This document shows positions 2,757 through 30,323 of a DNA stretch of 41,686 bases, piece after piece. The stretch is taken from NCBI GenBank assembly GCA_038328565.1, contig JBBQMC010000002.1, forward strand, positions 1 through 41,686, read 5' to 3'. Numbering within the stretch: position 1 is the first letter of the stretch; each line of letters starts with the position of its first letter. The notes under the pieces are model-generated. The model saw nothing but the letters and a program-made list of their open reading frames with translations. It made no database searches and was not told the origin of the DNA. A program made the position numbers and the translations under genes. The DNA comes from Candidatus Limnocylindria bacterium (GTDB lineage: Bacteria > Chloroflexota > Limnocylindria > QHBO01).

Positions 2757-3929
2757 TCACGTCGCGTACGCCTCCGTTGTGCGCGCCGGTTCCGCCGCAC
2801 CTGTGAGATGGTGCTCGCTGGTCGTGGCGGCACCCGCGGCCGGCAGCGCGCGCTCGAGGGCCACGACGATGCGACGCGCCGTCTGGCCGTCGCCGTACAG
2901 CTCCGGCCGCGGCCGGTCCCGCGCGAGGAAGGTCGGGTCGGTGAGCGCGGCGTGGACGGCGTCGGGGGCGGTGCCGACGATCCGGTTCCAGCCGGCGTCG
3001 ACGGTCTCGACCCACTCGGTCTCTGTCCGCAGCGTCACGCACGGGACGCCCGCGAGGTAGGCCTCCTTCTGGACGCCGCCGGAATCGGTCGCGATGGCGC
3101 TCGCCGCGCGCTCGAGGGCGACCATCTCCAGGAAGCCGACCGGATCGACCGCGGTCACCTCCGCAGGCATCCGGATCTCGTGGCGCTCGAGCATCGCACG
3201 GGTCCGGGGATGGACCGGGAAGATCACCGGGCGGCCGGTCTGGGCCGCGGCACTGGCGATGGCCGCGACGAGGCCCTCCAGCCGCTCCCGGTCGTCGACG
3301 TTCTCCGCCCGATGGAGCGTCACGAGGAGGAAGCCCGGCCGCTCGGCCGCAGCCGCGGGAAGATGGGATCCGGCGCGCGCTGCCGCCCACTGCCACGCAT
3401 CGACCATCACGTCGCCGACGAGCTCGGTGCGCGCGGCCAGCCCCTCGCGTTCGAGATGCTCGACCGCCGCCGCGGTCGGCGCCAGCAGGAGGTCGGCGAG
3501 GTGGTCGGCGACGATCCGGTTGCGCTCCTCGGGCATCGCGCGGTTGAACGAGCGGAGGCCGGCCTCGACGTGGGCGAGCGCCGGGCGACGACCGTCCGCG
3601 AACGCCACCTTGCCGGCGACGACCGCGGCGGCGAGGGTCGAGTTCGTGTCGCCGTAGACCAGGATCCAGTCCGGCTCGTGCTCGAGCATGACCGGCTCGA
3701 GGCGGCGCATCATCTCGCCGGTCTGCTCGCCATGGGCGCCGGATCCGACCTCGAGGTTGACGTCGGGCGCCGGGATCTCGAGGTCGCGGAAGAAGGCCGC
3801 GCTCATCTGCTCGTCGTAGTGCTGCCCGGTGTGCACGAGCAGCTCGGTGTGGCGGACGCGCAGGGCGCGGCTCACCGGCCCCGCCTTCACGAACTGCGGC
3901 CGCGCCCCGACCACGGTGAGGACCTTCAC
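2757..3929 (-). CDS. UDP-N-acetylglucosamine 2-epimerase family (non-hydrolysing; WecB/MnaA/WbpI-like), 390 aa
   Basis: VKVLTVVGARPQFVKAGPVSRAL...VHTGQHYD...GEQTGEMM...VYGDTNSTLAAA..HVEAGLRSFNRAMPEERNR are classical epimerase_2 motifs. The GTG start at 3927-3929 overlaps the stop of the upstream acetyltransferase (GTGA). Confidence 0.85.
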   Translation of the reverse strand: MKVLTVVGARPQFVKAGPVSRALRVRHTELLVHTGQHYDEQMSAAFFRDLEIPAPDVNLEVGSGAHGEQTGEMMRRLEPVMLEHEPDWILVYGDTNSTLAAAVVAGKVAFADGRRPALAHVEAGLRSFNRAMPEERNRIVADHLADLLLAPTAAAVEHLEREGLAARTELVGDVMVDAWQWAAARAGSHLPAAAAERPGFLLVTLHRAENVDDRERLEGLVAAIASAAAQTGRPVIFPVHPRTRAMLERHEIRMPAEVTAVDPVGFLEMVALERAASAIATDSGGVQKEAYLAGVPCVTLRTETEWVETVDAGWNRIVGTAPDAVHAALTDPTFLARDRPRPELYGDGQTARRIVVALERALPAAGAATTSEHHLTGAAEPARTTEAYAT

Positions 3930-4522
3930 TCGGCGGTACCCGGCGGAAACGCGTCGCCGCAGCGCGGGCACGAGCCCGCAAAGGGCAATCCTTCGACGTC
4001 ATGGAGGATATTGCCGCACGGGCAGGCGCTGCCCATTCGGCGCGCGGGGTTGCCGGCGACGAGCTCGTAGTCGGCGACGTCGCGGGTCACGACGCTGCCC
4101 GAGCCGATCATCGCCCAGCGTCCCACCGTCACGCCCGGCAGGATCGTGCTGTTCGCGCCGACCGCAGCGCCATGGCGGACAAGGATGGGTGATACCTCCC
4201 AGTCGGCATCGCTCTTCAGCGTGCCGTCGGCATTGATGGCGCGCGGCAGCCGGTCGTTCGTGAAGCACACGTGCGGACCGATGAACACGCCGTCCTCGAC
4301 GCTGACGCCGTGGTACAGGCTCACGTTGTTCTGCACCTTGCATCGGTCACCGATGACGACATCGGCGTCGACATACACGTTCTTGCCGATGATCGATCCG
4401 GCACCGATACGGGCGCGCTCACGCACCTGTGCCTGGTTCCAGATGCTTGCGCCGGGACCGATGACCGCATCGGCGGACACCTCCGCGCTGGGATGGATCC
4501 GCACGGACGGTTGGTCGGTCAT
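3926..4522 (-). CDS. Left-handed beta-helix (hexapeptide) N-acetyltransferase, WbpD/WlbB-like, 198 aa
   Basis: Hexapeptide repeats run throughout (IGPGASIW.., IGAGSIIGKNVYV, IGDRCKVQNNVSL, VGANSTILPGVTVGRWAMIGSGSVV), followed by the GNPARR motif. A Cys-rich C-terminal tail (CPCG..CPRCG) is present. Confidence 0.8.
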   Translation of the reverse strand: MTDQPSVRIHPSAEVSADAVIGPGASIWNQAQVRERARIGAGSIIGKNVYVDADVVIGDRCKVQNNVSLYHGVSVEDGVFIGPHVCFTNDRLPRAINADGTLKSDADWEVSPILVRHGAAVGANSTILPGVTVGRWAMIGSGSVVTRDVADYELVAGNPARRMGSACPCGNILHDVEGLPFAGSCPRCGDAFPPGTAE

Positions 4523-4573: not shown

Positions 4574-7500
4574 TCAGAGGCCCTCGATCTGGCTCCGCAC
4601 CGATTCGCTCACCGAGCCGCTGCCGCCGACCACGACGACGGTGCTCGGGTCGAGGCGCCGGATCTCGGCGACCACGGCCGCCGGCAGCGCGTCGCGCCCG
4701 ACCAGCAGGAGCGGCCCGCCGGCGAGACCGGCGACGGGACCGGCAGCCAGTCCATCCGCGAAGCCCGCGCCGGTGGCCACGTACAGCGTGGCGACGGGTG
4801 CGGGGTAGCTGGCGGCGCTGACCGCCGCCGCGGTCGCATAGCGATCGGCCCCCGCGATGCGCGTCGCCGTCCCCGCGGTGAGCGCGTCGAGGCGCGCGAC
4901 GACCGCATCGCTGATCATCGACGCCCCACCCAGCACGACGATCCGGCGGGGAGCGAGCCGCGCGAGCTCGGTGGCGGTCGCGGGCGGGAGGATGCCGGGC
5001 TTCGTGAGCAGGATCGGGCCATGGAGGTGCGCGGCGGCGGCGCCACCGGCCAACGCGTCGGCGAACGTCCCGCCGGTCGCCACGTAGGCGACCGCGACGC
5101 CCGGCGCGAACGCGGAGGCGCTGATCTTCGCCGCGGTCGCGTAGCGATCGATGCCCGCGGTCCGCGTCACGGAGCCGGTGGTGTAGGCGCCGAGGGCGGC
5201 GAGGACCGCGTCGCTCACCACCGCCGAACCACCGAGCACGACGATCCGAGCCGGGGCGAGGCGCGCCAGCTCGGCCGCGGTCGCCGGCGGCAGCGCCGTC
5301 GCGCCGGTCAGGAGGAGCGGACCGTGACCGGCGGCCGCGGCGGGCCCGCCGCTCAACGCATCGGCGAATCCGGCGCCGGAGGCTACATACGCAACCGGCA
5401 CGCCGGGCGCGAAGCGCGAGGTTGAGAGCAGGGCGGCGGTGGCATAGCGGTCCACGCCGCCGACACGCGGGGCCGCGCGCCGGGTGCCGAACGTCCAGCT
5501 CGTGCCCGCGAACGAGTTGCCGGCCGCCTCACGGATGGTCACCGCGCTGAGCGACACCTTGACGGTCGAGCGGCCGGGCAGCGTCGCCCGTGGCCGCAGG
5601 GTCGCCGTGCGGCGCGCGGCGTCGTAGCTGACGCTCGACGACAGCACGACCCCCGCGGCGTTCCGGATGGCCATCGTGGAGGTGCTGACACCGGTCACGG
5701 GCTCGCTGAACTGGACGGTGATGGCGCTGTCGGCGTCGATCCCGGCGGCGCCCGGACCCGGGCTCCGTGTGGCGATGAGTGGGGCGACGTTGTCGACGAA
5801 GGTCGGCGTGATGGCGTACGCGGCGCGCACCCCATTCGGCAGCCAGTTCGTCACCCGGATGGAGGCCGCCGCGCCGGCCGAGAGCTGGATCGAGCCGCGC
5901 TCGATCGCGGTCGAATCGGTTGGATTGTCGATGTGCAGCACGAGGCGGCCGGTCGCATCGTAGAGCTCGACCACCGGATCGAAGGGCAGCGAGCTCTTCA
6001 CCGGCCGCGTCGTGTCGACCACGGGCGTGACGGCCACGTCGATGCGCCCGGCGCGCGGCGCGGTGACGCGAACGACGTCGACGTCGCCGGCCGGGTAGCT
6101 GTTGGGTCGCGTCGTGACTCCCACCGGAATCGCGGCCGCCCGCGACAGGACGTTGTTCGGCTCCAGCGCGTCGCCCTGGCTCTGGGTCACCGGGGTCGCC
6201 GCTCCGCCGAGCGCGCGGAGGGCATTGACGCGACCGAATCCATACCGATCGTCACGTCCGCGGTAGCCGAGGTCGTCGACGGTCGCCTCGAGGCGGTCGA
6301 CGATCGCCTGCGGCGAGTAGGTCGGGAAGCGCGCCCGCATCAGCGCCACGACACCGGCCACGTTCGGTGAGGCGAAGCTCGTCCCGCTGATGGCGGTGTA
6401 GTCGCCCCATCCGTTGCAGCGGTTGCAGTTCGTCGTCGTCACCGCTGCGCCGGGCGCCGCGACCTCCACCCAGCTGCCGTAATTCGACCAGTTCGTGAGT
6501 TCGTCGTCGGCCTGCGTCGCGGTGACGCCGATCACGTGCGCGAAGTCGGCCGGGAACGTGGGGCTGCTGCTGCGGTTGTTGCCGGCGGCGGCAACGAGGA
6601 CGGCGCCGCGCGCCCACGCGCGGGCGACCGCGGCCGGGACGAGCGGGGTGTACGGGAAGCCGGCGATGCTCATGTTGATGACCTTCGCCCCGCGCTTCAC
6701 CGCGTAGTCGATTCCCGCGGCGAGGTCCGCGGTGTCGCCGGTCCCGGTGGCGTCCATGATCTTCACCGGCAGCACCTTGTCGCGCCAGCTGATGCCGGCG
6801 ATCCCGATCCCGTTGTCGTGGGTCGCGCCGATGATCCCGGACACCCAGGTGCCGTGGACGTTGTCCTCGGTTGGGTCGTTCGTGTCGGCCACGAAATTCC
6901 AGCCGCGCCAGTCGTCGACCTTCCCGTTGCCATCGTCGTCGCGCCCGTTCGACTCCTTGCCGCTGCCCAGCTCGCCGGCGTTGTAGGCGACGATGCCCTG
7001 GAGGTCGGGATGATCGAACTGGATGCCGGTGTCGAGCACGGCGACGATCGACGAGCCGCCGCTGCTCAACGCCCACGCGTCGCGGACGCGCATGCGGTCG
7101 AGGGCGTACTGCTGGACGTTCAGCGGGTCGCTCACCGGGACGGCCGCGACGGTGCCTGGGAGCGAGGTCACGTAGACGGGCTCGGCCCAGGCGACGGCGG
7201 GATCGGCGGCGAGCTCGGCCAGCACGTCCTTCGTCGCGCGGCCGTGCGTGTCGAGGATCTCCGTCGCGGGTGCGGAGGCCGCCACGTCGCGAACCGCCGC
7301 CAGGCCCAGGGCGCGCGCGCGGCCGGGTCCCTTCGCCGAATCGGCGTAGCGGACCGCGACGCGCCCGAGTACGACCTGCGGCGCCGGGTTCCCGGACGCG
7401 CGATCGGTTGGCGGCGCGGCGAGCGCCGCCGAGGCTGCGCGCGGGGCGGTGGGTGCGGCGAGCGCGCTCGAGCCGGTGGTGAGGACGAGCAGGGCCGCGA

Positions 7501-7636
7501 GGACGAGCGTGGCGAGGCGGGACAACGGCGAGGATCGGCTCCGGGCTGCGTGCCGGTGCGCGCGACCGTGCCCTCGGCAGCACGCGGCGGCAGGATGAAG
7601 GCTATCGACTGGCCGCGGGCGCCCGTACTGGACCAT
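4574..7636 (-). CDS. Secreted subtilisin-family (S8) serine protease with propeptide, PPC-like and Ig-like domains and 3 C-terminal CWB2 cell-wall-binding modules
   Basis: Catalytic triad motifs are VAVLDTGIQFDHPDL (Asp), HGTWVSGIIGA (His) and GTSFASPNVAGVVAL (Ser). The hydrophobic signal sequence is LATLVLAALLVLTTGSSALAAP. A GDALEPNN..YPAGDVDVVRV block is PPC-like, and a VDNVAPL...TVQFSEPV block is SbsA-type Ig-like. The start is uncertain: ATG at 7636, or TTG at 7523-7525, which gives a cleaner signal peptide (MSRLATLVL...). Confidence 0.85.
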   Translation of the reverse strand: MVQYGRPRPVDSLHPAAACCRGHGRAHRHAARSRSSPLSRLATLVLAALLVLTTGSSALAAPTAPRAASAALAAPPTDRASGNPAPQVVLGRVAVRYADSAKGPGRARALGLAAVRDVAASAPATEILDTHGRATKDVLAELAADPAVAWAEPVYVTSLPGTVAAVPVSDPLNVQQYALDRMRVRDAWALSSGGSSIVAVLDTGIQFDHPDLQGIVAYNAGELGSGKESNGRDDDGNGKVDDWRGWNFVADTNDPTEDNVHGTWVSGIIGATHDNGIGIAGISWRDKVLPVKIMDATGTGDTADLAAGIDYAVKRGAKVINMSIAGFPYTPLVPAAVARAWARGAVLVAAAGNNRSSSPTFPADFAHVIGVTATQADDELTNWSNYGSWVEVAAPGAAVTTTNCNRCNGWGDYTAISGTSFASPNVAGVVALMRARFPTYSPQAIVDRLEATVDDLGYRGRDDRYGFGRVNALRALGGAATPVTQSQGDALEPNNVLSRAAAIPVGVTTRPNSYPAGDVDVVRVTAPRAGRIDVAVTPVVDTTRPVKSSLPFDPVVELYDATGRLVLHIDNPTDSTAIERGSIQLSAGAAASIRVTNWLPNGVRAAYAITPTFVDNVAPLIATRSPGPGAAGIDADSAITVQFSEPVTGVSTSTMAIRNAAGVVLSSSVSYDAARRTATLRPRATLPGRSTVKVSLSAVTIREAAGNSFAGTSWTFGTRRAAPRVGGVDRYATAALLSTSRFAPGVPVAYVASGAGFADALSGGPAAAAGHGPLLLTGATALPPATAAELARLAPARIVVLGGSAVVSDAVLAALGAYTTGSVTRTAGIDRYATAAKISASAFAPGVAVAYVATGGTFADALAGGAAAAHLHGPILLTKPGILPPATATELARLAPRRIVVLGGASMISDAVVARLDALTAGTATRIAGADRYATAAAVSAASYPAPVATLYVATGAGFADGLAAGPVAGLAGGPLLLVGRDALPAAVVAEIRRLDPSTVVVVGGSGSVSESVRSQIEGL
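4577..5467 (-). repeat. Three tandem CWB2 (cell wall binding repeat 2, PF04122-like) coding modules (101, 101 and 95 aa)
   Basis: The modules begin RVGGVDRYATAALLS, RTAGIDRYATAAKIS and RIAGADRYATAAAVS. Each continues ..VAYVATG..FADAL.GG......GP.LLT....LP.AT..EL.RL.P..IVVLGG...VS. Confidence 0.8.
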
Positions 7637-7669
7637 GGTCCGGCCCCGATGGTCCCCCGCGGTCGCAGG

Positions 7670-8260
7670 TCAGCGCGTGAGCAGCTCGACGAGGCGCGGG
7701 GTGGCCGCCTGGACGGCGCGCCCGCGATGGCTGAGGCGGTCCTTCTCGCCCTCCGGCAGCTCGGCGCTGGTCACGCCGGACGGCAGGAGGAAGACCGGGT
7801 CGTACCCGAATCCGCCCTCGCCGCGGGGCCGGGTGGCGACGATCCCCTGGATTACGCCGCTGAACAGCTCGACCCTGGGCTCCGGGTTGCCGGGGATGCC
7901 GATCGCCAGGACGCAGACCATTCGCGCCCGACGGTCCGGGTTCTCGCCGAGCGCCTCGAGCAGCCGCTCCGCCTCGTGCCCGTCGCGGCCGCCGAAGCGC
8001 GCGCTCTGGACCCCGGGTCCCCAATCGAGCGCCGCGGCCTCGATCCCCGAGTCGTCGGCGACGGTCAGCAGCCCCGAGGCGCGGAGGTAGGCATCGGCCT
8101 TGACGCGGGCGTTCTCGGCGTAGGTGTCGAACGGCTCGTCGACGTCGAGCTCGAGACCGATCTCGTCCGGGGTCACGACGCGTGCCGGCAGGTGGGCGAG
8201 GAGACGGCCGAACTCGCGCCGCTTGCCGGCATTCGTGGTCGCGAGGAGGAGCTCCCTCAC
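7670..8260 (-). CDS. rdgB: Non-canonical purine NTP pyrophosphatase (RdgB/HAM1 family)
   Basis: [17 protein letters not shown]...[10 protein letters not shown]...ADDSG...FGYDPVF...[12 protein letters not shown] are HAM1 signatures. The start overlaps the rph stop by 4 nt. Confidence 0.9.
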
Positions 8261-8991
8261 TCCGCCGGGTCGGCGGCCACGGCGGCCTTCTGGAGCTCGA
8301 ACAGCTGCCGGATGCCGGCCGCGGCAAGATCGGTCATGGCGTTCATCTGCGCGCGGTCGAAGGCGCGGTGCTCGGCGGTGCCCTGGATCTCGACGAACCG
8401 ATCGTCGCTGAGCATGACCACATTGAAGTCCACGTCCGCGGTGGAGTCCTCCGCGTAGTTGAGGTCGAGATGGGCGACGCCACCGAGCATGCCGACGCTC
8501 ACCGCCGCGACCTGCGCGGTCAGGAGGTGCCCCATGCCGTACTTGTTCATCGCCCGCGCCAGCGCAACGTAGGCGCCGGTAATGCTCGCCGTCCGCGTCC
8601 CGCCGTCGGCCTGGATCACGTCGCAGTCGAGCGTGATCGTCCGCTCGCCAAGGCGGTCGAGGGCCACGACACCGCGCAGGCTGCGGCCGATGAGGCGCTG
8701 GATCTCGTGGGTGCGGCCACCGATCTGGCCACGCGCCGCTTCGCGCTGGCTGCGCTCGGTGCCGGCTCGGGGCAGCATGCTGTACTCGGCGGTGACCCAG
8801 CCAGCGCCCTTGCCGCGCATCCAGCCCGGGACGCGGTCCTCGATCGTCGCGGCGCAGATGACTCGCGTGTCGCCCACCCGGATGAGGACCGATCCCTCGG
8901 CGAACTTGATGTAGTCCGGCACGATCTTCACCGGGCGCAGCTGGTTGGGAGCGCGACCGTCGGGACGGCGCGCGGCGGCGATGCTTGTCAT
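8257..8991 (-). CDS. rph: Ribonuclease PH
   Basis: [13 protein letters not shown]...[18 protein letters not shown]...[17 protein letters not shown]...[18 protein letters not shown]...[19 protein letters not shown]. The start is taken at the [13 protein letters not shown] methionine; the track ORF extends to 9048. Confidence 0.9.
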
Positions 8992-9028
8992 GAGAGGGCC
9001 GATTCTACGTGCTACCGTCGGCCGACCG

Positions 9029-9925
9029 ATGCGCCTGCTCGTGATCACCGCACGCTATCCCACGCCCGACCGGCCGGCCGCCGGCGCATTCGTCCGCGAT
9101 CGCCTCGTCGGCGTGAACGCCACCGTGGTTGCCCCGCAGCGCTACGACATCCCCGGCTGGCGGCGGTACCTGGCGATCATGTGGCGCGCGTGCACCCGGC
9201 GCGGGCCGTTCGACGGGGTCGAGGCGCACTTCGCGCTGCCCACCGGCGTGATCGGGCTGCTCGCCGCCGGCCTGCGCCGGAGGCCGCTCGTCGTCTACGC
9301 GCATGGATTCGACCTCCGCGTGGTGGCGCACCGCAACCCGCTGTTCCACCTGCTTGCGCAACGCGTCGTGCGGTCGGCGGCCGCGGTGGTGACCAACTCG
9401 GCCGACATGGCGACCCTCGTCGCCGACCTCGGGGCGACGGCGGAGGTCATCCCTCCCGGGATCGACCTGGAGCGGTTCCGGCCCTCGCCCCGACCGGCCG
9501 AACGCCGCGTCCTCTATCTCGGTGGCAGCGTCGAGCACAAGGGCATCGCCGTCGCGCGTCAATTCGCGGACACCATGGTCGGGCCGGGACTGCGGGAGGT
9601 GGATCCCACCCTCATCCCTGGGCTCCTTGCCGAGCACGACGTGCTGCTGGTTCCGTCGCTCGCCGAGCCGCACGGGCTCGTGGCCGCGGAGGCCATCGCC
9701 GCTGGCCGCTGGGTGGTGGCGCGTGCCGTCGGCGGCCTGAACGACATCGTGACCGATGGCGTGAACGGGACGCTCGTGCGCGATGGGGACTTCGGCCGAG
9801 CCCTCGCCGCCGTGCCCGACTACGACCCGGTGGCTGTCTCTGCCACCGCGTCGCGCTTCAGCGTGGAGATCCACCGCGCCCGAATGGGCGAGCTCTGGGA
9901 GCGCGTGCTGTCGACCGAGCGCTAG
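9029..9925 (+). CDS. Compact GT-B glycosyltransferase (GT4/GT1-family), 298 aa
   Basis: [22 protein letters not shown]..., and the C-terminal EX7E-type motif [46 protein letters not shown]3 is high throughout. The stop overlaps the convergent CWB2 gene stop (CTAG). Confidence 0.8.
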
Positions 9926-11322
9926 GGCAGGAGTGCCTGGATCTGCTCCACCACGGCGTCCGAGATGACGCTGGTGCCGCCGAGGATGATGACCTCGTTC
10001 GGCCCGAGCCGGCTGAGCTCGGCCCCCACGCTCGAGGGCAATTCGCCGGGCGCCACGAGGAGGACCGGGCCCGGCACGAGCGCCGCGACGGGGCCACTGG
10101 CGAGGCCATCGGGGAAGGCGAATCCGGTCGCCACGAAGGCGGTGTCCGATCCGGTTCCATACGCGAACCTGCTGACCGCGACCGATGTCGAGAACCGATC
10201 GGCGCCGGCCAGGCGCTGGACACCGCCGGAGGCCGCGTACGACCGAAGGCCGGCGAGGACCGCATCGTCGAGCGCGCTCGCGCCGCCGAGCACCAGGATC
10301 CGCGCCGGTGCGAGGCGCGCCAGTTCGGCGGCGGTCGCCGACGGCACACCGGTCCGCGTCGCCAGGAGGACCGGCCCGCCGTCGCGGCCGGCCACCGCAC
10401 CTCCCGCGAGGGCATCCGGGAACGTCTCGCCGGTCGCCACGTACGCGACCGCCACGCCCGGCGCATAGGTCGCGGCGCTGATGGCGGCGGCGGTGGCGTA
10501 GCGGTCCGCCCCGGCGATGCGCTCGACCGGCGCGATGCCGTCGAGCGCGGCCGCAACCGCACCGGAGATGACGCCCGGACCGCCGAGCACGACGATGCGG
10601 CCGGGTCGCAGTCGGGTGAGCTCTTCCTGCGTCGCGGCGGGCAGCGTGTCGCGGGCGGTCAGCAGGACCGGGCCCGCGTCATGGGCCGCGGCCGCCGCGC
10701 CGGCGAGCGCATCGGGGAAGCTGGCCCCGGTGGCGATGTACGCCACCGCCACCCCCGGCCCGAAGCGGGCGCGGCTGATGGCAGCGGCCGTCGCATAGCG
10801 GTCCGTGCCGGCGATGCGGCTCACCACGGTCGTGCGGGTCGGTGCGGCGCAGAGCTTCACGAACACCATCGCCGAGTAGGCGGTGCCGCTGCTGGAGCGG
10901 GCGTGGCTGCCGCCGGACGCGTTGTAGTCACCCACGATGATCGCGTGGTGCCCCGGCGACGCCCACCACTGCTCCATCGTCCGAGCCGGGTCGTAGGTCG
11001 GATAGCCGCGCTCGGAGGCGATGATCTCGCCGTAGCCGGAGAAGCACGTGCCGGCCGCGTGGAGCTGGTTCGCGACATACGTCATGTCGTGGGCGAGCAC
11101 GTCGTTGGCGGCCATCTGGCGCGCGCGATCGTCACTGATTCGCTCGAGCAGCGCGCCGTAGGCCACCGGTGCGCGGCCCTCGAGGGCTCGCTTCTGGTTG
11201 GCGAGGCTCACGAGGGCCCGGCCGTCGACCGCGCCGGTGACCGAGGCGCCGGCCTGGACCATCCCCAGCGCGAGCACGATGGCGAGCGGTGGAACGGTGA
11301 ACCGATGTGGACGCGGGAACAT
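9922..11322 (-). CDS. Secreted CAP/SCP (PR-1 / YkwD-like) domain protein with 3 C-terminal CWB2 modules
   Basis: The signal peptide is MFPRPHRFTVPPLAIVLALGMVQAGA. The CAP block is LANQKRALEGRAPV...ARQMAANDVLAHD...GEIIA...MEQWWASPGHHAIIVGDY. Three CWB2 modules follow. Confidence 0.8.
   Translation of the reverse strand: MFPRPHRFTVPPLAIVLALGMVQAGASVTGAVDGRALVSLANQKRALEGRAPVAYGALLERISDDRARQMAANDVLAHDMTYVANQLHAAGTCFSGYGEIIASERGYPTYDPARTMEQWWASPGHHAIIVGDYNASGGSHARSSSGTAYSAMVFVKLCAAPTRTTVVSRIAGTDRYATAAAISRARFGPGVAVAYIATGASFPDALAGAAAAAHDAGPVLLTARDTLPAATQEELTRLRPGRIVVLGGPGVISGAVAAALDGIAPVERIAGADRYATAAAISAATYAPGVAVAYVATGETFPDALAGGAVAGRDGGPVLLATRTGVPSATAAELARLAPARILVLGGASALDDAVLAGLRSYAASGGVQRLAGADRFSTSVAVSRFAYGTGSDTAFVATGFAFPDGLASGPVAALVPGPVLLVAPGELPSSVGAELSRLGPNEVIILGGTSVISDAVVEQIQALLP
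9925..10818 (-). repeat. Three tandem CWB2 coding modules (99, 102 and 97 aa)
   Basis: The modules begin RIAGTDRYATAAAIS, RIAGADRYATAAAIS and RLAGADRFSTSVAVS, with the same downstream consensus as in the other three proteins. Confidence 0.8.
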
Positions 11323-11428
11323 GTGGTGGTCGGTGCTCCGGTGCGATGAGCCATGAGGGGCTCAGGCAGACGCTACCGAGCGTCGACGCGCGCCAACATG
11401 GCCCGATCCTCCTTCGGCGCTGCGCCCA

Positions 11429-13711
11429 TCAGTCCCAGAGCGCGCGGAGCTGGGCGGCGATCGCGGCGCTGATCGAGGCCGTCCCCCCGAGGATGACGAC
11501 GCGCGCCGGATTGAGGCGCTGGAGCTCGGCGAGGACGTCGGGCGGGATCGCCGTCGTGGTGGTGAGCAGCAGCGGGCCGTCGTCGCGGACCGCCGGCGGC
11601 GAGCCGGAGAGGCCGTCCGGGAACGCCTGGCCGGTGGCGAGGTAGACGACGCGCGGACCCGGCGCGGTCGTGGCGCGAGAGACGGCCACCGAGGTGGCGT
11701 ATCGATTCGCCCCGGAGAGCCGCGTCACCGTGCCCGACGAGGCGTATGCGACGAGCGCGCCCGCCACCGATGGACTGACCGCGACCGGTCCGCCCAGGAC
11801 GACGATCTCCGCCGGCTGGAGGCGGGCAAGCTCGGCGGCCGTGGCATCCGGCACCTGATCGGCGGCGGTGAGGAGGATCGGCCCGCCCGCGCGTCCCGCG
11901 GCGACGCCGCCGGAGAGCGCATCCGCGAAGCTCGTCCCGGAAGCGACATAGGCGACGGAGGCGCCGCCGGGGAAGGCATCCGCGCTCACCGCGGCGGCCG
12001 TCGCGTAGCGATCGCTGCCGCCGAGCCGGGTGACGACCCCGCCCTTCGCATACACCCCGAGCGAGGCCATGAGGGAGTCGGCGATCACCGACGGGCCGCC
12101 GAGGACGACGATGCGCTCCGGCTTGAGGCGAAGGAGCTCGCCGACGGTCGCATCGGGAAGCAGGGTCCGCTTCGCGAGCAGCACCGGGCCGCCCTGACGG
12201 CCGGCCGCAGGACCGGCGGCGAGGGCATCCGCGAAGTCGGCACCGGTGGCCACGTAGGCGACCGCGACGCCCGTCCCGTAGGCACCCGAGCTCACCGCAG
12301 CCGCCGTCCCGTAGCGGTCCGGTCCCGAGGCGCGCCCGACGCGCTCGAGCAGGTGCGACTCGATGACGTTCCACAGGTCGCTGGTGCCGGTATCCATGCC
12401 GAGCGCCCAGATGCCGGTGCCCGCGAGCCCGTTGCGCACGACGAGGTCGTACTTCATGCCGATCGAGGTCGGGTCGTCGTAGTACAGCTGCCGCCAGCCG
12501 CCGTCACTGGCGCGGTAGATGGTGTACGGACCCTGTCCGACCGCATCCCAGTGGCGGCCGTTCGTCGCCGCCAGCGATCGGGCGTAGTTGCCCGCCACGT
12601 CGGTGCGGAAGTAGGCGAACGCGGAGGAGCTGGCCGGGCTGCGGACCGGCGAGTTGACCTGATCGGTGCTCGTGTTCCAGGCGCGCCCGTAGTACGGCAC
12701 GCCCCAGATCAGGCGGCTCGGCGGAACGACCGCCATGTGGTCGCGCAGCGCGTCGCCGGCGGCGTAGATCGTGGCGCTGCCGTACGGCGCCACCCCGCCG
12801 GCCCGCGCCGAGCCGGCGTACGAGAAGTCGTACGCCATGACCATGATCGCGTCTGCCGCGCCGGCCGCGGTGAGTGCCGCGACGTCGTAGCCGGTGGACC
12901 AGGCGGCCGCGCCCGCCATGGTGTCCACCGTCAGGTATGAACCGACCCTGGCGCTCACGAGCGCGGCCTTCAGCTGACGGGTGAACGAGGTGAACTGGGC
13001 GCGCAGACTGGACGGCACAGGCTCGAAGTCGACGTTGACGCCATCCGCGTGGCGATCGCGGACCATCGCGACCACGCCGTTCACGAGGTTCGCGCGGTTG
13101 GCGGCCGAGTTGAGCAGGCCGGTCATCGCGGTGTAGTCGTAATTCCACGCCTGCATCGTGATCGTGGGCACCACGCGCACCCCACGCTGGTGGGCCGCGT
13201 TCATCAGGCTCGTCATCGTCGGCGAGGCCCAGCCCGCCCACCCCACGGTGGCCGCTCCCCCGGTCGTCGTCTTCTGGAGCGATCCGTTCTGCGAGACGCC
13301 GATGCTGAAGTAGGCGATCGTCGACAGGAGGTCGAGGCGCAGGCGCGAGACGACGGCCAGGTCGAGGTCCCAGTACGGCAGGAAGCCGAGCACCTCGTGC
13401 CCGAGCCCGTTCGGCAACGCGCCGCCCGGCCCGCTGATCGCGGCGGTCCCGCCGACGAGTGGATCGACGCTCCCGAGGCTCGCCTTGGCAGCCGAGCCTA
13501 CGGCGGCGGTCGTCCCGCCGCCGTGCGCGGCCAGCATCTCCGACTGGGCAGACGGCGCGACGAGGCCTGCCGGCATGGGCGGCAGGACCGATCCGTCGGC
13601 CAGCGTCACCGCGCCGCCGAGCGGCGACGGGTCCGCGGCGCCGGCGCTGCCGGGCAGCGCGAGGCTGGCAAGGAGGACGATGCCGACGACGGCGTGCCAG
13701 GTGCGCTTCAT
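11429..13711 (-). CDS. Secreted glycoside hydrolase family 18 protein (YaaH/CFLE spore-hydrolase-like subgroup) with 3 C-terminal CWB2 modules
   Basis: The signal peptide is MKRTWHAVVGIVLLASLALPGSAGA. GH18 blocks are VLGFLPYWD, the catalytic motif DGVNVDFE (13022-13045) and MVMAYDF. Three CWB2 modules follow. Confidence 0.85.
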   Translation of the reverse strand: MKRTWHAVVGIVLLASLALPGSAGAADPSPLGGAVTLADGSVLPPMPAGLVAPSAQSEMLAAHGGGTTAAVGSAAKASLGSVDPLVGGTAAISGPGGALPNGLGHEVLGFLPYWDLDLAVVSRLRLDLLSTIAYFSIGVSQNGSLQKTTTGGAATVGWAGWASPTMTSLMNAAHQRGVRVVPTITMQAWNYDYTAMTGLLNSAANRANLVNGVVAMVRDRHADGVNVDFEPVPSSLRAQFTSFTRQLKAALVSARVGSYLTVDTMAGAAAWSTGYDVAALTAAGAADAIMVMAYDFSYAGSARAGGVAPYGSATIYAAGDALRDHMAVVPPSRLIWGVPYYGRAWNTSTDQVNSPVRSPASSSAFAYFRTDVAGNYARSLAATNGRHWDAVGQGPYTIYRASDGGWRQLYYDDPTSIGMKYDLVVRNGLAGTGIWALGMDTGTSDLWNVIESHLLERVGRASGPDRYGTAAAVSSGAYGTGVAVAYVATGADFADALAAGPAAGRQGGPVLLAKRTLLPDATVGELLRLKPERIVVLGGPSVIADSLMASLGVYAKGGVVTRLGGSDRYATAAAVSADAFPGGASVAYVASGTSFADALSGGVAAGRAGGPILLTAADQVPDATAAELARLQPAEIVVLGGPVAVSPSVAGALVAYASSGTVTRLSGANRYATSVAVSRATTAPGPRVVYLATGQAFPDGLSGSPPAVRDDGPLLLTTTTAIPPDVLAELQRLNPARVVILGGTASISAAIAAQLRALWD
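11432..12334 (-). repeat. Three tandem CWB2 coding modules (102, 102 and 97 aa)
   Basis: The modules begin RASGPDRYGTAAAVS, RLGGSDRYATAAAVS and RLSGANRYATSVAVS. Confidence 0.8.
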
Positions 13712-13736
13712 GGGTCGCGGGACTCCAGCTGGATGT

Positions 13737-13759
13737 GGACGGCCCGCACGCGGGCGTCC
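13737..13759 (-). terminator. GC-rich hairpin between two CWB2 genes (candidate U-tract-less terminator or 5'-UTR structure)
   Basis: ggacggcccgcacgcgggcgtcc forms a 9-bp G/C stem with one bulged G and a 4-nt loop. It lies about 70 nt after the stop at 13830 and about 26 nt upstream of the GH18 start. No U-tract follows it. Confidence 0.3.
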
Positions 13760-13829
13760 GGGAACTGCACCGAACCGTACCGATCCGAACCGAGCGGCGA
13801 CATGGTACGAACTGCCCAGCCGCCCGCTG

Positions 13830-15629
13830 TCAGTCGCCGAGGATCACGCGCAGCTGCGAGATCGCCGCGTCGGCGACGACGCTCGTGCCGCCCAGCACGA
13901 CGACGTGGGCCGGACCGAGGCGCTGGAGCTCGCGTGCGGCGGCGAGCGGGATCGAGCCGTTCGACACGAGCAGCAGCGGGCCGCCGACGATCGCTGCCAC
14001 CGGTCCGCCGCCGAGCGCGTCGGGGAAATTCGCACCGGTGGCGAGATAGACGGTCGAGGCGGTCGCGAACATGCCGGCCGACACCGCCGCCGCGGTCTCG
14101 TAGCGGCTCGCGCCGGCGAGGCGGGTGACGGGGGCGTAGCCCGCCAGCTCGGTCGCCGTGGCGGACGGGACGACCGATGTCGAGCCGAGGATGATGATGC
14201 GCCCCGGTGCGAGGCGGGTGAGCTCCGTCCGGATCGCGTCCGGCAGGCCATCCGGGCCGACGAGGAGCACCGGCCCCTCGGCCACGCCCGAGGCCGGGAC
14301 GCCGGCGAGTGCGTCGGGGAAGTTCCCGCCGGTCGCGATGTAGGCGGCCGCGACCCGCGGCGCGAAGGTGGCGGCGCTCACGAGGGCGGCGCTCTCGTAG
14401 CGGCTCGCCCCGGCGATGCGTGTCACCTCGCCGCTGGTGGCGTATGCCGCGAGGTCGGCCACCACCGCGTCCGGGATGACGCCGCTCCCGCCGACGACGA
14501 CGATGCGGGCCGGTTGCAGCCGTTCGAGCTCGGTCGCCGTTTCCGGCGGCACCGACGAGGTCCCGACGAGGAGGACAGGGCCGCCGTCGTGAGCGGCGGC
14601 AGCACCCGCGGCGAGCGCGTCCGGGAAGTTGCCGCCGGTCGCGACATAGGCCACGGGGACGCCGGCCGCGAAGCTGGCGGCCGACACGGCCGCTGCGGTC
14701 CCGTAGCGATTCGTCCCGGCGAAGCGAGCGACGGCGGTGGGGGTCGGGCTGACGACCGCGCCGGACAGGGTGCGGTGCGGGTCACCCGCGAACGCATACC
14801 AGTAATCGGTGCCCAGCCACTGGTTCGTGGTTCGCTGGATCCACACCTGGCGGCCCGCCAGGTCCGGGTGCGGCGTGGACCGGATGGCGCCCGGGTCGAA
14901 TCCCCGGCCGGCGCGGAACGCATCACCGAAGGAGAGGCCTGGATTGGCAAGCAGGCGGCTGACGAGGTCGGCCTCGTCGCCGTAGTCGGTCGCGAAGAAG
15001 GCTCCGCCGCCAAGCTTGAGTGGCGGGTACGCGAAGTTGGCGGCCCGCGCTCGGGCGACGCTCTCCGCCGGCGCCGGCCGCGCCTCCCCGGCGCCCGGCG
15101 TGTAGCAGGCATGGGCGTAGATCATCACGAAGCCGGGGGCCGGCGCGATGCCGTCGTTCGCGGTGCCGCCGCAGTAGGTCAGCCGCGTGGCGTCGTCCGA
15201 GGCGGTGAGCGTCCCGAGCAGGGCCCGCTCGCCGCAGTACGCCATGTTCGTCTCGCTGTCGCCGCCGGTCGTGGTCCTGTTGAGCCCCCAGCCGTTCACG
15301 CGATCGGTGTTCTCGGTCGCGCTGTACGGATTGGGGAAGCCGTTGCCGTGGCCCATCCAGACGATGATGTTCGCGCCGCTCACGGCGGCCTTCACCTTCG
15401 CCCAGGTGGCGTTGGGTGAGTAGACCTTCACGACCGTCGCGCCGCGTGCGGCTGCGGCGGTGGCGACGTCATCGGCCGAGTTGCGATAGCTGGTGGTCTG
15501 CGCGCCGGTGGGACCCACGATGATCACCACCTTGTAGCCGGCGGCGGTCGCGGCGCCGGGAAGCAGCGCCAGGAAGGCGCTGACGGCGACGAGGACCGCG
15601 ACGGTCGAATGGCGAAGGCGGTCTCGCAA
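13830..15629 (-). CDS. Secreted protein: unassigned ~260-aa N-terminal domain with a clan-CD (caspase/gingipain-fold)-like His/Cys pattern, plus 3 C-terminal CWB2 modules
   Basis: The preferred start is TTG at 15627-15629, six nt downstream of GGGAG, giving MRDRLRHSTVAVLVAVSAFLALLPGAATAAG (signal peptide). The track ORF starts at ATG 15731. The head domain contains KVVIIVGP, GANIIVWMGHGNG and GFVMIYAHACYTPG. Confidence 0.7.
   Translation of the reverse strand: MRDRLRHSTVAVLVAVSAFLALLPGAATAAGYKVVIIVGPTGAQTTSYRNSADDVATAAAARGATVVKVYSPNATWAKVKAAVSGANIIVWMGHGNGFPNPYSATENTDRVNGWGLNRTTTGGDSETNMAYCGERALLGTLTASDDATRLTYCGGTANDGIAPAPGFVMIYAHACYTPGAGEARPAPAESVARARAANFAYPPLKLGGGAFFATDYGDEADLVSRLLANPGLSFGDAFRAGRGFDPGAIRSTPHPDLAGRQVWIQRTTNQWLGTDYWYAFAGDPHRTLSGAVVSPTPTAVARFAGTNRYGTAAAVSAASFAAGVPVAYVATGGNFPDALAAGAAAAHDGGPVLLVGTSSVPPETATELERLQPARIVVVGGSGVIPDAVVADLAAYATSGEVTRIAGASRYESAALVSAATFAPRVAAAYIATGGNFPDALAGVPASGVAEGPVLLVGPDGLPDAIRTELTRLAPGRIIILGSTSVVPSATATELAGYAPVTRLAGASRYETAAAVSAGMFATASTVYLATGANFPDALGGGPVAAIVGGPLLLVSNGSIPLAAARELQRLGPAHVVVLGGTSVVADAAISQLRVILGD
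13833..14726 (-). repeat. Three tandem CWB2 coding modules (102, 99 and 97 aa)
   Basis: The modules begin RFAGTNRYGTAAAVS, RIAGASRYESAALVS and RLAGASRYETAAAVS. Confidence 0.8.
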
Positions 15630-15799: not shown

Positions 15800-16660
15800 T
15801 CAGTCCTGGGTGTAGCTGAGTACGACGAGGAGTCGATCCAGGTGCCGGAAATCGAGAGCGGGGGTGACGAATGCCGTCTGCGTCAGCCCTTCGCCGGGGT
15901 CGGTCTCGACCGCCTGCACGGTACCGATCAGGAGGCCGCGCGGATAGCGGCTCCGGACCTCGCCCTTGCCGGCGAGGCCGGCGCTGATCACCGCGTCGCC
16001 GCCCTTGACCGCATCGGTCACGCGCACGTCGACCATGAGGAGGTCGCCGCCGAGCCGGCCCTGGACGAGGCCGAGGGCGCGGGTCGCCTGGTCGAGCGCA
16101 ATGACGCTCGAGCGCGTGTCGATGACATAGCGCACCTGCGCGGTGTCGGCGGTGACGCTCACCACCGTGCCGGCGAGCGCGCCGGCGCCGTCAGCACTGC
16201 CGACGACCGCCATCCCGACCTCGAGGCCGTCATCGGCGCCCGCATCGACGCCGACCTCCCAGCTGAAGTTCGACGGGTCAACGGACAGGACGCGCACCGG
16301 CAGCAGCTGCATGGCGAGACTCTCGCGCAGGCCGAGCAGCTGCCGCAGCTCGGCGTTCTCGCGGGCGGCCTCGGTCAGCTCGGTGACCCGCTCCTGCATG
16401 CCCGACGCGAGGCCGCGCAGCCCATCGTTCTCGGCGCGAAGGCGCTCGATCTCGCCGAGGGTGCCGAAGACGCCCACGATGCCGTCGCCGATGCCGGTCA
16501 CCGCGTGGCGCACCGGATCCAGCGCCCGGGCACCGACCTCCTGGATCGCCCGCGCCGGCGGCGTCCGCGAGGCGAGCAGCAGGACGAGCGAGATGATCAT
16601 GAATGCCGCATAGAGGCGGCCGACGCGCGAGCCGCGCCGAGGAGGTCCGCCGATCATCAT
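15800..16660 (-). CDS. mreC: Rod shape-determining protein MreC
   Basis: It has an N-terminal TM segment (LYAAFMIISLVLLLA) and a coiled-coil (LRAENDGL...ELTEAARENAELRQLLGL). The C-terminal beta domains include G.AVV.....G.VV.V....A.V..I.D and YPRGLLIGTV. The start is 17 nt downstream of mreB. Confidence 0.85.
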   Translation of the reverse strand: MMIGGPPRRGSRVGRLYAAFMIISLVLLLASRTPPARAIQEVGARALDPVRHAVTGIGDGIVGVFGTLGEIERLRAENDGLRGLASGMQERVTELTEAARENAELRQLLGLRESLAMQLLPVRVLSVDPSNFSWEVGVDAGADDGLEVGMAVVGSADGAGALAGTVVSVTADTAQVRYVIDTRSSVIALDQATRALGLVQGRLGGDLLMVDVRVTDAVKGGDAVISAGLAGKGEVRSRYPRGLLIGTVQAVETDPGEGLTQTAFVTPALDFRHLDRLLVVLSYTQD

Positions 16661-17911: not shown

Positions 17912-18064
17912 CCGAACGTGGCCACCTGTTGCATGGGCTGACAACGGAAGCCAGGAAACGCCGGAATCCGCCTCCAGTTTGGCCGGTACCTCCACCGTGT
18001 GAACCACGGGCGCCCGGGGCTGGCGCGGTCGTGCAGCCCGGGTCGGACGGGTATGGTTAGACCG

Positions 18065-20248: not shown

Positions 20249-20320
20249 TTCCCGATTCCGGCTGCGTGCCCGGCCAGAAATCACTGTGGCGAGGCGTAGG
20301 CGGGAGGAATTGGCCAGGAA

Positions 20321-21085
20321 TCAGCCGGCGGCTGGTTGTGACGGCGCACCTGCGGCACCGTGTGCTCGGGGAGCACGGACGCGCTGCTGACCGGCCCGCG
20401 TACGTCCATCTCGGTTGATATCTGGCAATGGGATGACGGCAAGGACCCCCGAGCCGGGGATCGTCGGGTCCGCCAGCCAGCGGGCTGCCTCGCGGCCGCG
20501 AAGATCGAACCCACCAAAGAGCGTCGGGGCAGCAGCGATCCGGCGGCGCGTGGTCCGGCCTTCGGCCACCACCAGCGCACGCACGACGCGCCCCGCCCGC
20601 CAGCCACGCTCAGCCGCGACGCGAGCGCCAAGGCGCGCCTTGACATCGAGACGGCCCAGCGTTTCGGACACGTCCCAGATGCCGGTCTTGCACTCGGCGA
20701 CCTCGAGTGTCCGCGTTGGTGTGTGGAACGCGAGCAGGTCAATCCGGCCACGCTCGCCGTAGATGCTGAAGCTCGCCTCCGGCCAGATCTCCCACGTCCC
20801 GCGCGCATGCCGCTCGGCCCAAGCTGTAACGAGGGCGGCGTGGTCGCGGTCGAGCAGGCGGTCGAGGTCGCCGAGGCCGCCCCATCGCACGTCGAGGTAT
20901 CCCCTCGTGCCGAGCGCTGCGAGGACGGCCCGCAGCGTCCCGAGCGTGAACCGATCCGCGGCTCCGCGCTCGATTGCCGAGATTGCGGCCTGGCTGACTG
21001 CCGCGACGCGTGCGAGATCGGTCTGGCGCCAGCCGCGGCGCTGTCGAAGCACCCGCACCGCCCGACCGAGCCGTCCGTCGTCCAC
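20321..21085 (-). CDS. XRE-family helix-turn-helix protein fused to a PD-(D/E)xK (Hjc/restriction-endonuclease-like) domain
   Basis: GTG start. The HTH is LGRAVRVLRQRRGWRQTDLARVAAVSQAAISAIERG. The C-terminal half reads ...EIWPE..SIYGERGRIDLLAFHTPTRTLEVAECKTG..., i.e. E...D...ExK on a predicted beta-beta-beta core. The tail is low-complexity. Confidence 0.65.
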   Translation of the reverse strand: MDDGRLGRAVRVLRQRRGWRQTDLARVAAVSQAAISAIERGAADRFTLGTLRAVLAALGTRGYLDVRWGGLGDLDRLLDRDHAALVTAWAERHARGTWEIWPEASFSIYGERGRIDLLAFHTPTRTLEVAECKTGIWDVSETLGRLDVKARLGARVAAERGWRAGRVVRALVVAEGRTTRRRIAAAPTLFGGFDLRGREAARWLADPTIPGSGVLAVIPLPDINRDGRTRAGQQRVRAPRAHGAAGAPSQPAAG

Positions 21086-21104
21086 GCCGGAAGGATGCGG
21101 GGCG

Positions 21105-21129
21105 GTGCCGTACCGACCGGTTACGGCGC
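21105..21129. promoter_or_regulatory. Imperfect palindrome / hairpin between the malQ stop and the HTH-nuclease gene start
   Basis: ggtGCCGTAccgACCGGTTACGGCgc has 6-bp perfect arms at 21107-21112 and 21122-21127 (8 bp as RNA), around an ACCGGT core. It lies 20-45 nt upstream of the GTG at 21085. Confidence 0.3.
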
Positions 21130-21146
21130 GCTTATGCGAGACCCGA

Positions 21147-22960: not shown

Positions 22961-22964
<4 letters not shown>
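21147..22964 (-). CDS. malQ: 4-alpha-glucanotransferase (amylomaltase, GH77)
   Basis: GH77 motifs are [50 protein letters not shown] and THDLPT. The GTG start at 22962-22964 overlaps the glgX stop (GTGA). The track ORF is extended to 23270. Confidence 0.85.
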
Positions 22965-25110
<2,146 letters not shown>

Positions 25111-25114
<4 letters not shown>

Positions 25115-28129: not shown

Positions 28130-28149
28130 CGGTCTCGTTCGCCTGCGCG

Positions 28150-30246
<2,097 letters not shown>

Positions 30247-30323
30247 TTCGGCCTCAACCCTACCCGATGCGCAAACCGTGAGCCGAACCCCGCGGCGCGC
30301 CGCGGGGTAGTGTCCGGTGACTG

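Follow-up and report, generated by a model that had tools for sequence, protein, structure and literature searches.

A putative Cwp-like cell-wall protein locus with C-terminal CWB2 triplets beside mreBC in a Candidatus Limnocylindria contig

Contig JBBQMC010000002.1 (assembly GCA_038328565.1) of a Candidatus Limnocylindria bacterium carries four minus-strand genes whose predicted products each combine a different N-terminal head with three C-terminal modules of the cell-wall-binding type CWB2. The window analysed is the entire 41,686-bp contig, and all window-wide counts and negatives given below hold at contig scale. The gene map is based on a third-position GC frame plot combined with Pfam and NCBIfam scans; GC content is 72% across the whole window, and long spurious open reading frames (ORFs) are frequent on both strands. 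The four genes encode an S8 protease with a Big_5 domain (4574-7525; 983 aa), a CAP/SCP protein of YkwD-like type (9922-11322; 466 aa), a GH18 protein (11429-13711; 760 aa) and a protein with an unannotated head (13830-15629; 599 aa). An earlier note, written from the sequence without database searches, had placed the locus at 4574-15629, a range which extends from the stop codon of the S8 gene to the TTG start of the fourth gene. That range also holds three genes outside the set listed in the note: Ham1/RdgB (7670-8260) and RNase PH (8257-8991), both on the minus strand, and a glycosyltransferase of family 4 (GT4), about 300 aa, on the plus strand (about 9020-9925; Pfam Glyco_transf_4 and Glycos_transf_1), which converges on the CAP-CWB2 gene. 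Immediately upstream of the four genes and on the same strand lie mreC (15800-16660; Pfam MreC, E 1e-27) and mreB (16678 to about 17700; Pfam MreB_Mbl, E 7e-142), a context that is conserved by synteny in relatives.

The identity of the modules is well defined. In Pfam hmmscan all four proteins match PF04122 (CW_binding_2) over three stretches each, with E-values of 1.3e-53 for the S8 protein, 1.2e-54 for the CAP protein, 6.3e-49 for the GH18 protein and 5.2e-48 for the fourth protein, and with scores of 162-183 bits against a gathering score of 24.9 bits. A hidden Markov model (HMM) based on the modules of the window locates 12 of them, each 95-98 aa long and all in C-terminal triplets, and every triplet extends to the last residue ahead of the stop codon. 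On the minus strand the S8 triplet occupies 4577-5467 (modules 5174-5467, 4871-5164 and 4577-4861), the CAP triplet 9925-10818 (10525-10818, 10228-10521 and 9925-10215), the GH18 triplet 11432-12334 (12041-12334, 11735-12028 and 11432-11722) and the triplet of the fourth protein 13833-14726 (14433-14726, 14127-14420 and 13833-14123). The same HMM found no further CWB2 module in any six-frame ORF of at least 100 aa in the window. Pairwise identity among the 12 modules is 40-68%; modules 1 and 2 are the most alike, and module 3, which diverges most, is also the shortest; the same is true in Clostridioides difficile. The consensus read by eye in the earlier note (R..G..RY.T..., ATG..F.DAL, GP.LL, LP, EL.RL.P, VVLGG) matches the module alignment, and a P[ILV]LL motif, in the form PVLL, PILL or PLLL, is present in 12 of 12 modules. 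In C. difficile the ILL part of this motif, as seen in Cwp66, is essential for anchoring, and all three repeats are needed and are not interchangeable (PMC4973711).

Structural comparison leads to the same assignment. A sequence search of the PDB with phmmer returns C. difficile CWB2 proteins only, the CAP protein matching Cwp6 (9e-29), Cwp8 (2e-21) and the high-molecular-weight (HMW) form of SlpA (2e-13). Residues 61-633 of the fourth protein (in the numbering of the 633-aa ORF that begins at the ATG at 15731) were modelled by AlphaFold2 with 98 homologues, giving a pLDDT of 91 and a pTM of 0.86. With this model Foldseek retrieves Cwp6 (5j72; 1e-22), Cwp8 (3e-21) and SlpA HMW (7acy_B; 5e-18), the last with a target-normalised TM score of 0.71 and an rmsd of 2.7 Å over 348 columns. 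By prediction, the three modules pack against one another as they do in solved CWB2 trimers, and the pseudo-threefold unit suggested by the note is found in the model, which superposes on the trimers of SlpA, Cwp6 and Cwp8. Pfam, the PDB sequence matches and the predicted fold therefore agree that these modules have the CWB2 (PF04122) architecture, in C-terminal triplets throughout, as the note had supposed.

The heads, by contrast, all differ: Pfam recognises Peptidase_S8, CAP and Glyco_hydro_18 and has no match for the fourth. All four proteins begin with signal-peptide-like N-termini, that of the GH18 protein reading MKRTWHAVVGIVLLASLALPGSAGA|ADP. The S8 domain (Pfam E 1e-49) has all three of the Asp, His and Ser motifs (VLDTG, HGTWVSG and SGTSFASP) and is accompanied by a Big_5 domain (E 4e-12), an Ig-like spacer. 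The longest ORF for this gene reaches 7636, the likely start being the TTG at 7525, which gives the 983 aa seen in orthologues. The CAP domain (Pfam E 2e-7) bears a weak likeness to the YkwD group, the NCBIfam YkwD domain model matching at E 3e-6, under its cutoff. The GH18 domain (Pfam E 2e-31) contains the sequence DGVNVDFE, in which the D-x-E catalytic pair is kept and Asn stands at the position of the second Asp of the chitinase motif, canonically DGxDxDWE.

The fourth gene begins at the TTG at 15629, preceded by GGGAG, and its orthologues are likewise 599 aa long. Its head of about 270 aa is conserved, with 53-60% identity across the class, and has no match in Pfam, in NCBIfam, in the PDB by phmmer, or in a PDB profile search with 77 homologues, which returned noise only. 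A head-only AlphaFold2 model is nevertheless confident (pLDDT 90, pTM 0.91); Foldseek finds it no significant neighbour in the PDB, the best match (E 0.037) being a generic flavodoxin-like alpha/beta fold. The head defines a family of 458 matches, in which it can make up the whole protein (about 300 aa) or be joined to CWB2, SLH, Big_5 or other Ig-like domains. Two strands are followed by invariant residues in the alignment, one by H68-G69 and the other by C106; C127, Y150 and H228 are invariant as well, and E108 and E156 nearly so. Sub-threshold Pfam matches to Peptidase_C25 (22 of 77 members, best E 0.006) and Peptidase_C50 (21 of 77, best E 0.001), all under gathering scores, cover the region through the GHG...C segment, and both families belong to clan CD; the window's own protein has no clan-CD profile match in the Pfam scan. 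The full-length model gives weak Foldseek matches to caspase-4 (probability 0.44) and gingipain K/Kgp (0.33). In a pattern that recalls clan CD peptidases (gingipain C25, separase C50, caspases), an invariant His-Gly follows a beta-strand and an invariant Cys follows another beta-strand 38 residues on; unlike them, the head reaches no curated threshold and its head-only model is without a significant PDB neighbour. A divergent clan-CD-like cysteine peptidase is thus a tentative assignment, which we rate at slightly less than even. A metal-dependent hydrolase is an alternative, since position 149 (variably His or Cys), H228 and E156 would fit a metal site, and the two invariant cysteines could instead form a disulfide. 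Two further ideas were discarded. The GHG motif raised the possibility of an Amidase_3-like head; Cwp6, which is a CWB2-anchored amidase/autolysin by its PDB entry name and PMC5817068, is in the structure library, yet no amidase is among the matches listed for the head-only model. C149, in the sequence AHAC, was considered as the catalytic Cys, but position 149 is His in most homologues.

A head without an assigned function, on a protein carrying the same trimer as the S-layer protein of C. difficile, could also be taken to mean that this protein, or another of the four, is a structural S-layer subunit analogous to SlpA and not a displayed enzyme. S-layer proteins are typically variable, however, whilst this head is small and strongly conserved with invariant His, Cys and Tyr and nearly invariant Glu residues; many of its homologues are head-only proteins, and weak clan-CD peptidase signals are present. 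We consider a structural role extremely unlikely.

At least 499 relatives were collected with the fourth protein as query against a set of genomes, one for each GTDB species, and locus conservation was followed by tblastn of the window proteins against the relatives' loci (numbered here with the prefix L) together with an HMM scan of those loci. Full-length matches to the fourth protein come nearly all from metagenome-assembled genomes (MAGs) labelled Ca. Limnocylindria, Chloroflexota or 'uncultured Chloroflexia', the closest being 86% and 77% identical. Two others, labelled Steroidobacteraceae and Zixiibacteriota, look like mis-binning, and actinobacterial matches align to the CWB2 part only. 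The contig is that of a member of the Chloroflexota, class Ca. Limnocylindria, for which a median genome of about 2.4 Mb and about 69% GC has been reported (PMC10608941). An actinobacterial origin, suggested by the GC content and by the GlgE pathway encoded further along the contig, was rejected because the close relatives are without exception Chloroflexota/Limnocylindria MAGs. No cultured member or envelope description of the class was found in the literature searched.

At least 20 related MAGs share the four CWB2 genes in unchanged order, within two types of locus. In type A (the window contig, L001-L007, L017, L020, L041 and L078) the order is MreB, MreC, the unknown head, GH18, CAP, GT4 on the opposite strand, RNase PH, Ham1, S8, an acetyltransferase (AcT), WecB, DegT, a GFO/IDH/MocA oxidoreductase (GFO), a dehydrogenase and a glycosyltransferase of family 2 (GT2). 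The GT4 keeps its position in the type A loci of relatives, and its orthologues in L078 and L081 are 300-301 aa long. In type B (L008, L010-L014, L016, L023 and L025) the sugar block comes first, as AcT, WecB, DegT, GFO, dehydrogenase and GT2, followed by a peptidyl-prolyl isomerase (PPIase), a large GT4, the unknown head, GH18, CAP, RNase PH, Ham1 and S8. The order of the CWB2 and sugar blocks thus differs between the two types, while their adjacency is kept. Because of the constant position beside mreBC, the four enzymes probably act in wall remodelling or in the maturation of surface proteins.

Exactly three modules are present in 139 of the 158 CWB2 ORFs of related loci, and among the remaining ORFs several come from assemblies prone to frameshifts or from the ends of contigs. 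Some of the MAG assemblies have a long-read appearance ('contig_NNNN') and call for caution over frameshifts, as in DegT of L008 (793-2669) and many genes of L079 and L082, so that lengths and domain counts there are uncertain. Further CWB2-triplet proteins in related MAGs comprise a second S8 protein, a PQQ-type glucose/sorbosone dehydrogenase (GSDH), proteins with CarboxypepD_reg repeats, a VanY protein with an N-terminal triplet, and proteins with unknown heads. With at least 5-6 CWB2 proteins per related MAG, a lower bound, the CWB2-triplet proteins form a Cwp-like multigene family. A GSDH gene is present in the window too (30324-31607, plus strand), where it is anchor-free; the GSDH proteins of two related MAGs (L030 and L046), about 31-32% identical to it, have a C-terminal CWB2 triplet.

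In one relative the anchor has been exchanged. L079 (10001-14486) has a MreB 93% identical to that of the window and, from GlgX to DegT, an identical order of genes (in part MreB-MreC-head-GH18-CAP-like-RNasePH-Ham1-S8-AcT-WecB-DegT), with S-layer homology (SLH) domains in place of CWB2 on the unknown-head, GH18 and CAP-like proteins. Among the best 120 of the 458 homologues of the fourth head, 38 carry SLH; at NCBI, orthologues of this kind go by the name 'S-layer homology domain-containing protein [Ca. Limnocylindria]'. In the orthologous locus L080 (10001-19073) the proteins have Big_5/Ig domains and neither CWB2 nor SLH. Since the triplet is interchangeable with SLH on orthologous enzymes, the comparative evidence for its predicted role as a wall anchor is strong.

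The same exchange bears on a different view of the four proteins, namely that they are released exoenzymes feeding on chitin, protein or microbial necromass, the triplet binding foreign cell walls and not the cell's own. An S8 protease, a GH18 protein and a possible cysteine peptidase would make a typical scavenging set, and Limnocylindria have been proposed as degraders of complex organic matter (PMC10608941). Against this, at least 20 MAGs have the set directly downstream of mreBC; SLH, which anchors proteins to the cell's own wall, takes the place of CWB2 in orthologues; the CWB2 proteins of relatives include VanY, a D,D-carboxypeptidase acting on the own wall; and the GH18 motif departs from that of canonical chitinases, as described above. 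Release to scavenge is accordingly judged very unlikely.

The genes to the left of the S8 gene, all on the minus strand, suggest what the anchor may bind. The earlier note had pointed to amino-sugar nucleotide genes, a GT2 and a GT4 in the flanks, and all are mapped by the Pfam and NCBIfam scans. Next to the S8 gene lies a hexapeptide N-acetyltransferase, WbpD/WlbB-like (3926-4522; Pfam Hexapep), whose best PDB match is 3mqg (E 2e-35), entitled 'lipopolysaccharides biosynthesis acetyltransferase', which we take to be Bordetella WlbB; a look-up of its exact sequence returned no record. It is followed by a non-hydrolysing UDP-GlcNAc 2-epimerase, WecB/WbpI-like (2757-3971; Pfam Epimerase_2, E 5e-95), which passes the WecB equivalog model (NCBIfam TIGR00236 wecB, 285 bits against a cutoff of 210). 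A GFO/IDH/MocA oxidoreductase (1649-2704; Pfam GFO_IDH_MocA), like a UDP-GlcNAc 3-dehydrogenase of the WbpB step, matches NCBIfam NF040723 (UDP-GlcNAc 3-dehydrogenase) at E 3e-85, under its cutoff, and PDB 7bvj best at E 4e-32. The nucleotide-sugar 6-dehydrogenase (378-1652; 424 aa, gene call from P0241) resembles UDP-ManNAc dehydrogenases of the WbpA/WecC step, with 322 bits to NCBIfam TIGR03026 against a cutoff of 190 and PDB matches to the UDP-ManNAcA dehydrogenase 4r16 (9e-63) and Cap5O (4e-60). The last gene, a GT2 with NCBIfam GT2-type matches, is truncated at the contig end (1-369); its full-length orthologue in L081 has 260 aa. The Wbp route to UDP-2,3-diacetamido-2,3-dideoxy-mannuronic acid, or UDP-ManNAc(3NAc)A, has been defined (PMC4031482), and the four left-flank enzymes, as homologues of WbpA, WbpB, WbpD and WbpI, fit it at the level of protein families. 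Because the 3-dehydrogenase resembles UDP-GlcNAc enzymes and the 6-dehydrogenase UDP-ManNAc enzymes, the order of steps may be the archaeal one.

The fifth enzyme of such a route, the DegT/WbpE aminotransferase, is reduced in the window contig to a remnant of 19 codons and a stop (VIPVARPQYTIHLAAEVTA*) at 2701-2760 on the minus strand, as seen from the junction alignment and translation. The deletion is clean and in-frame, fusing the start of DegT (VIPVARP) to its end (EVTA*), and in blastn the breakpoint at window 2737/2727 corresponds to L081 7872/8926. All relatives examined have an intact DegT between WecB and GFO, and in one of them the dehydrogenase protein is 97% identical. Either the strain lost the segment recently or the gap is an artefact of assembly; if the loss is real, the strain could make UDP-ManNAcA, but the diacetamido sugar only with a further aminotransferase encoded elsewhere.

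The locus of one relative shows how the sugar block continues. In L081 (GCA_038209995.1, 11284-21275) the genes past GT2 encode a PrsA/SurA-like PPIase, MazG, a GT4, a Glycos_transf_4 protein of the WecA/TagO/MraY family, Wzy_C, a GT1 and a LytR_cpsA_psr (LCP) ligase, and these polymer genes correspond to the region just past the left end of the window contig. A Wzx-like Polysacc_synt gene is present in L080. Judged by its gene content, the L081 continuation is what would be expected for a secondary wall polysaccharide linked to peptidoglycan.

Taken together, these data are best read as a Cwp-like cell-wall protein locus in Ca. Limnocylindria, the four enzymes being held non-covalently on a secondary wall polysaccharide, a reading to which we assign a probability of about 0.7. 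The S8 protease, the GH18 glycosidase, the CAP/YkwD-like protein and the possible clan-CD-like cysteine peptidase would be exported through Sec by way of their N-terminal signal peptides. The three non-identical C-terminal CWB2 modules of each protein would then fold into one pseudo-threefold unit, which would hold the enzyme non-covalently on a secondary cell-wall polysaccharide attached by LCP linkage to peptidoglycan, so that the enzymes would be displayed on the wall. This polymer is most probably anionic, with a uronic acid of the ManNAc type as its building block. In relatives the sugar would be 2,3-diacetamido-2,3-dideoxy-mannuronic acid, supplied by the adjacent Wbp-like cluster, whilst in the window contig, with DegT deleted, the product could be ManNAcA only, subject to the same proviso of an aminotransferase elsewhere.

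Several points weigh against this reading. The binding of the triplets to a wall polymer is a prediction, as is the Limnocylindria envelope itself. Two of the four triplets are acidic, with a pI of about 5.0, which would not be expected if an anionic polymer were gripped by electrostatics alone. The initiating transferase, Wzy_C and LCP genes known from L081 fall past the end of the window contig, and Pfam and NCBIfam scans found no SlpA-like or SecA2-like gene on the 41.7-kb contig. Since the locus also encloses the housekeeping genes rph and rdgB, some of its synteny may reflect no more than common inheritance within one class. The DegT (WbpE) gene is gone from the window contig, with 1,053 bp missing. 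Finally, the sugar cluster is equally conserved beside the SLH-type locus L079 and the Big_5-only locus L080; it is kept whatever the anchor, and adjacency alone therefore cannot identify its product as a CWB2-specific ligand.

Some of the same observations would also follow if the triplets were wall anchors whose ligand does not come from the neighbouring sugar cluster and is instead peptidoglycan, a teichoic-acid-like polymer or a polysaccharide encoded elsewhere, the adjacency being a gene order inherited within one class. The flanking of SLH-type and Big_5-only loci by the same cluster, the embedded rph and rdgB, and the loss of DegT from a contig with all four CWB2 genes intact are each compatible with this, and all the loci compared come from a single class. 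Yet the CWB2 and sugar blocks stay adjacent in two groups of MAGs despite differing in relative order, the extended L081 locus has every hallmark of a peptidoglycan-linked wall polysaccharide including an LCP ligase, and the arrangement parallels the pairing of cwp genes with the anionic-polymer locus of C. difficile. A ligand from elsewhere is thus rather unlikely. The anchor-plus-polymer arrangement that the earlier note had proposed stands in so far as the adjacency is kept in two gene orders and continues to an LCP ligase in L081; it does not stand as a CWB2-specific pairing, the sugar cluster being found also beside SLH-bearing and anchor-less loci.

One could go beyond the Cwp-like reading and propose that a core set of wall enzymes linked to mreBC has exchanged CWB2 and SLH triplets as a unit, with no recognisable anchor in some lineages, while the locus for a diacetamido-uronic-acid polymer was kept throughout, and that the fourth head founds a new family of clan-CD-like peptidases, conserved as partners of the elongation machinery of monoderm Chloroflexota. 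This combined proposal is doubtful at present. If true, the type of anchor would track lineage-specific change in the decoration or recognition of one secondary wall polymer, and the anchor switch would constitute a natural experiment on what each anchor reads.

The remainder of the window is of separate interest. Beyond mreB lie a glucan cluster of the GlgE pathway, radC and purine genes. The glucan cluster, complete and of the GlgE type for alpha-glucan (17999-30399; GlgB, MalQ, GlgX, maltokinase, TreS and GlgE), adjoins mreB. The GlgE pathway is best known from actinobacteria; here it is found in a member of the Chloroflexota. The radC gene (31608-32297) adjoins mreB-mreC in more distant relatives (L040, L048, L053, L054 and L057), whilst about 14 kb, mostly the glucan cluster, lie between radC and mreBC in the window contig and its close relatives. 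In the window contig mreC is not followed by mreD, the gap to the next gene being only 170 bp. A plus-strand ORF at 8182-11349 (1055 aa) was considered as a gene and rejected as a high-GC antisense artefact, being without a Pfam match in a region where the GC frame plot shows no single plus-strand frame. Other very long antisense ORFs (up to 1055 aa), which exist because of the 72% GC, overlap real genes without family matches of their own and could mislead naive ORF calling. Rfam at gathering thresholds finds no RNA family in the window. A 95-nt tRNA-Gly(GCC) called by ARAGORN at 39022-39116 on the minus strand is probably a false positive, as it lies inside the ORF of a GGDEF/HD-type c-di-GMP protein (37955-39685, plus strand) and Rfam is silent there.

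Reviews place CWB2 in Firmicutes and Actinobacteria only (PMC5817068), and no paper linking CWB2 to Chloroflexota was found in the literature searched, in keeping with the note's opinion that the system is probably uncharacterised in this lineage. Database pipelines already name these proteins 'cell wall-binding repeat-containing protein'. The locus extends a known anchoring system to a new phylum, a well-supported conclusion which overturns nothing; to it are added the orthologous exchange of CWB2 and SLH, a conserved new head family and the DegT deletion. CWB2 anchoring has so far been studied nearly only in C. difficile and in a few Bacillus autolysins. A multi-gene Cwp-like family in an uncultured class of Chloroflexota abundant in soil and freshwater provides concrete, testable hypotheses for its envelope, which would be monoderm, with an anionic polysaccharide attached by LCP and with proteases and glycosidases displayed at the surface. 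The orthologous CWB2 and SLH loci offer matched protein sets for the question of anchor and ligand specificity, and the conserved, unannotated fourth head, well folded by prediction, is a candidate new peptidase family.

The closest parallel is the Cwp family of C. difficile (SlpA, Cwp2, Cwp6, Cwp8, Cwp66 and Cwp84). In both, three tandem non-identical CWB2 modules make up one unit, a P[ILV][ILV][LV] motif is present in every module, and the heads are varied enzymes including proteases; the predicted Limnocylindria fold superposes on Cwp6, Cwp8 and SlpA. In C. difficile the cwp genes pair with the anionic-polymer (AP, PSII) locus (PMC4973711), and the Limnocylindria genes likewise lie beside a wall-polysaccharide locus with glycosyltransferases and an LCP ligase, in part on the window contig and fully in L081. 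The differences are nonetheless considerable. The present locus belongs to a member of the Chloroflexota, at 72% GC, and is linked to mreBC. Identity between the fourth-protein model and the C. difficile proteins is only about 18-19% in Foldseek alignments, whereas identity from module to module is 40-68% in Limnocylindria against an average of 27% in C. difficile (PMC4973711). There is no slpA, secA2 or cwp84-type (papain-like) gene on the window contig, which is hence not a copy of the S-layer cassette, and the polymer is predicted to contain ManNAc-uronic or diacetamido-uronic acid, in contrast to the mannose-containing PSII.

Parallels can also be drawn with other monoderms. CwlB/LytC of Bacillus subtilis and CWB2 proteins of actinobacteria (Micrococcales) show that CWB2 repeats are carried by wall-active enzymes outside the Clostridia (PMC5817068). 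Among the actinobacterial loci, which are the more distant matches in the scan for relatives, several (for example L043, L047, L049 and L069) have N-terminal or internal triplets, whereas in the conserved Limnocylindria locus the triplet is always C-terminal; the sets of heads differ too. SLH anchoring, as in Sap and EA1 of Bacillus anthracis and SpaA of Paenibacillus alvei, similarly relies on three tandem modules that form a pseudo-trimer and bind a wall polysaccharide non-covalently (PMC5817068, PMC4973711), and the two anchors are interchangeable on orthologous Limnocylindria enzymes. Their folds and sequences are unrelated, however, and SLH needs a pyruvylated ligand; no pyruvyl-transferase was noticed in the present material, though no search was aimed at one. 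For the predicted polymer the nearest precedent is Geobacillus stearothermophilus, in which a non-pyruvylated anionic secondary cell-wall polymer containing ManNAc(3NAc)A non-covalently anchors the non-SLH S-layer proteins SbsA, SbsC and SgsE (PMC4232325). The binding domain there is of a third, unrelated type, the Limnocylindria sugar is only predicted, and DegT is missing from the window contig; the acidic sugar of the Geobacillus polymer is, even so, the very one predicted as the product of the Wbp-like cluster in the relatives.

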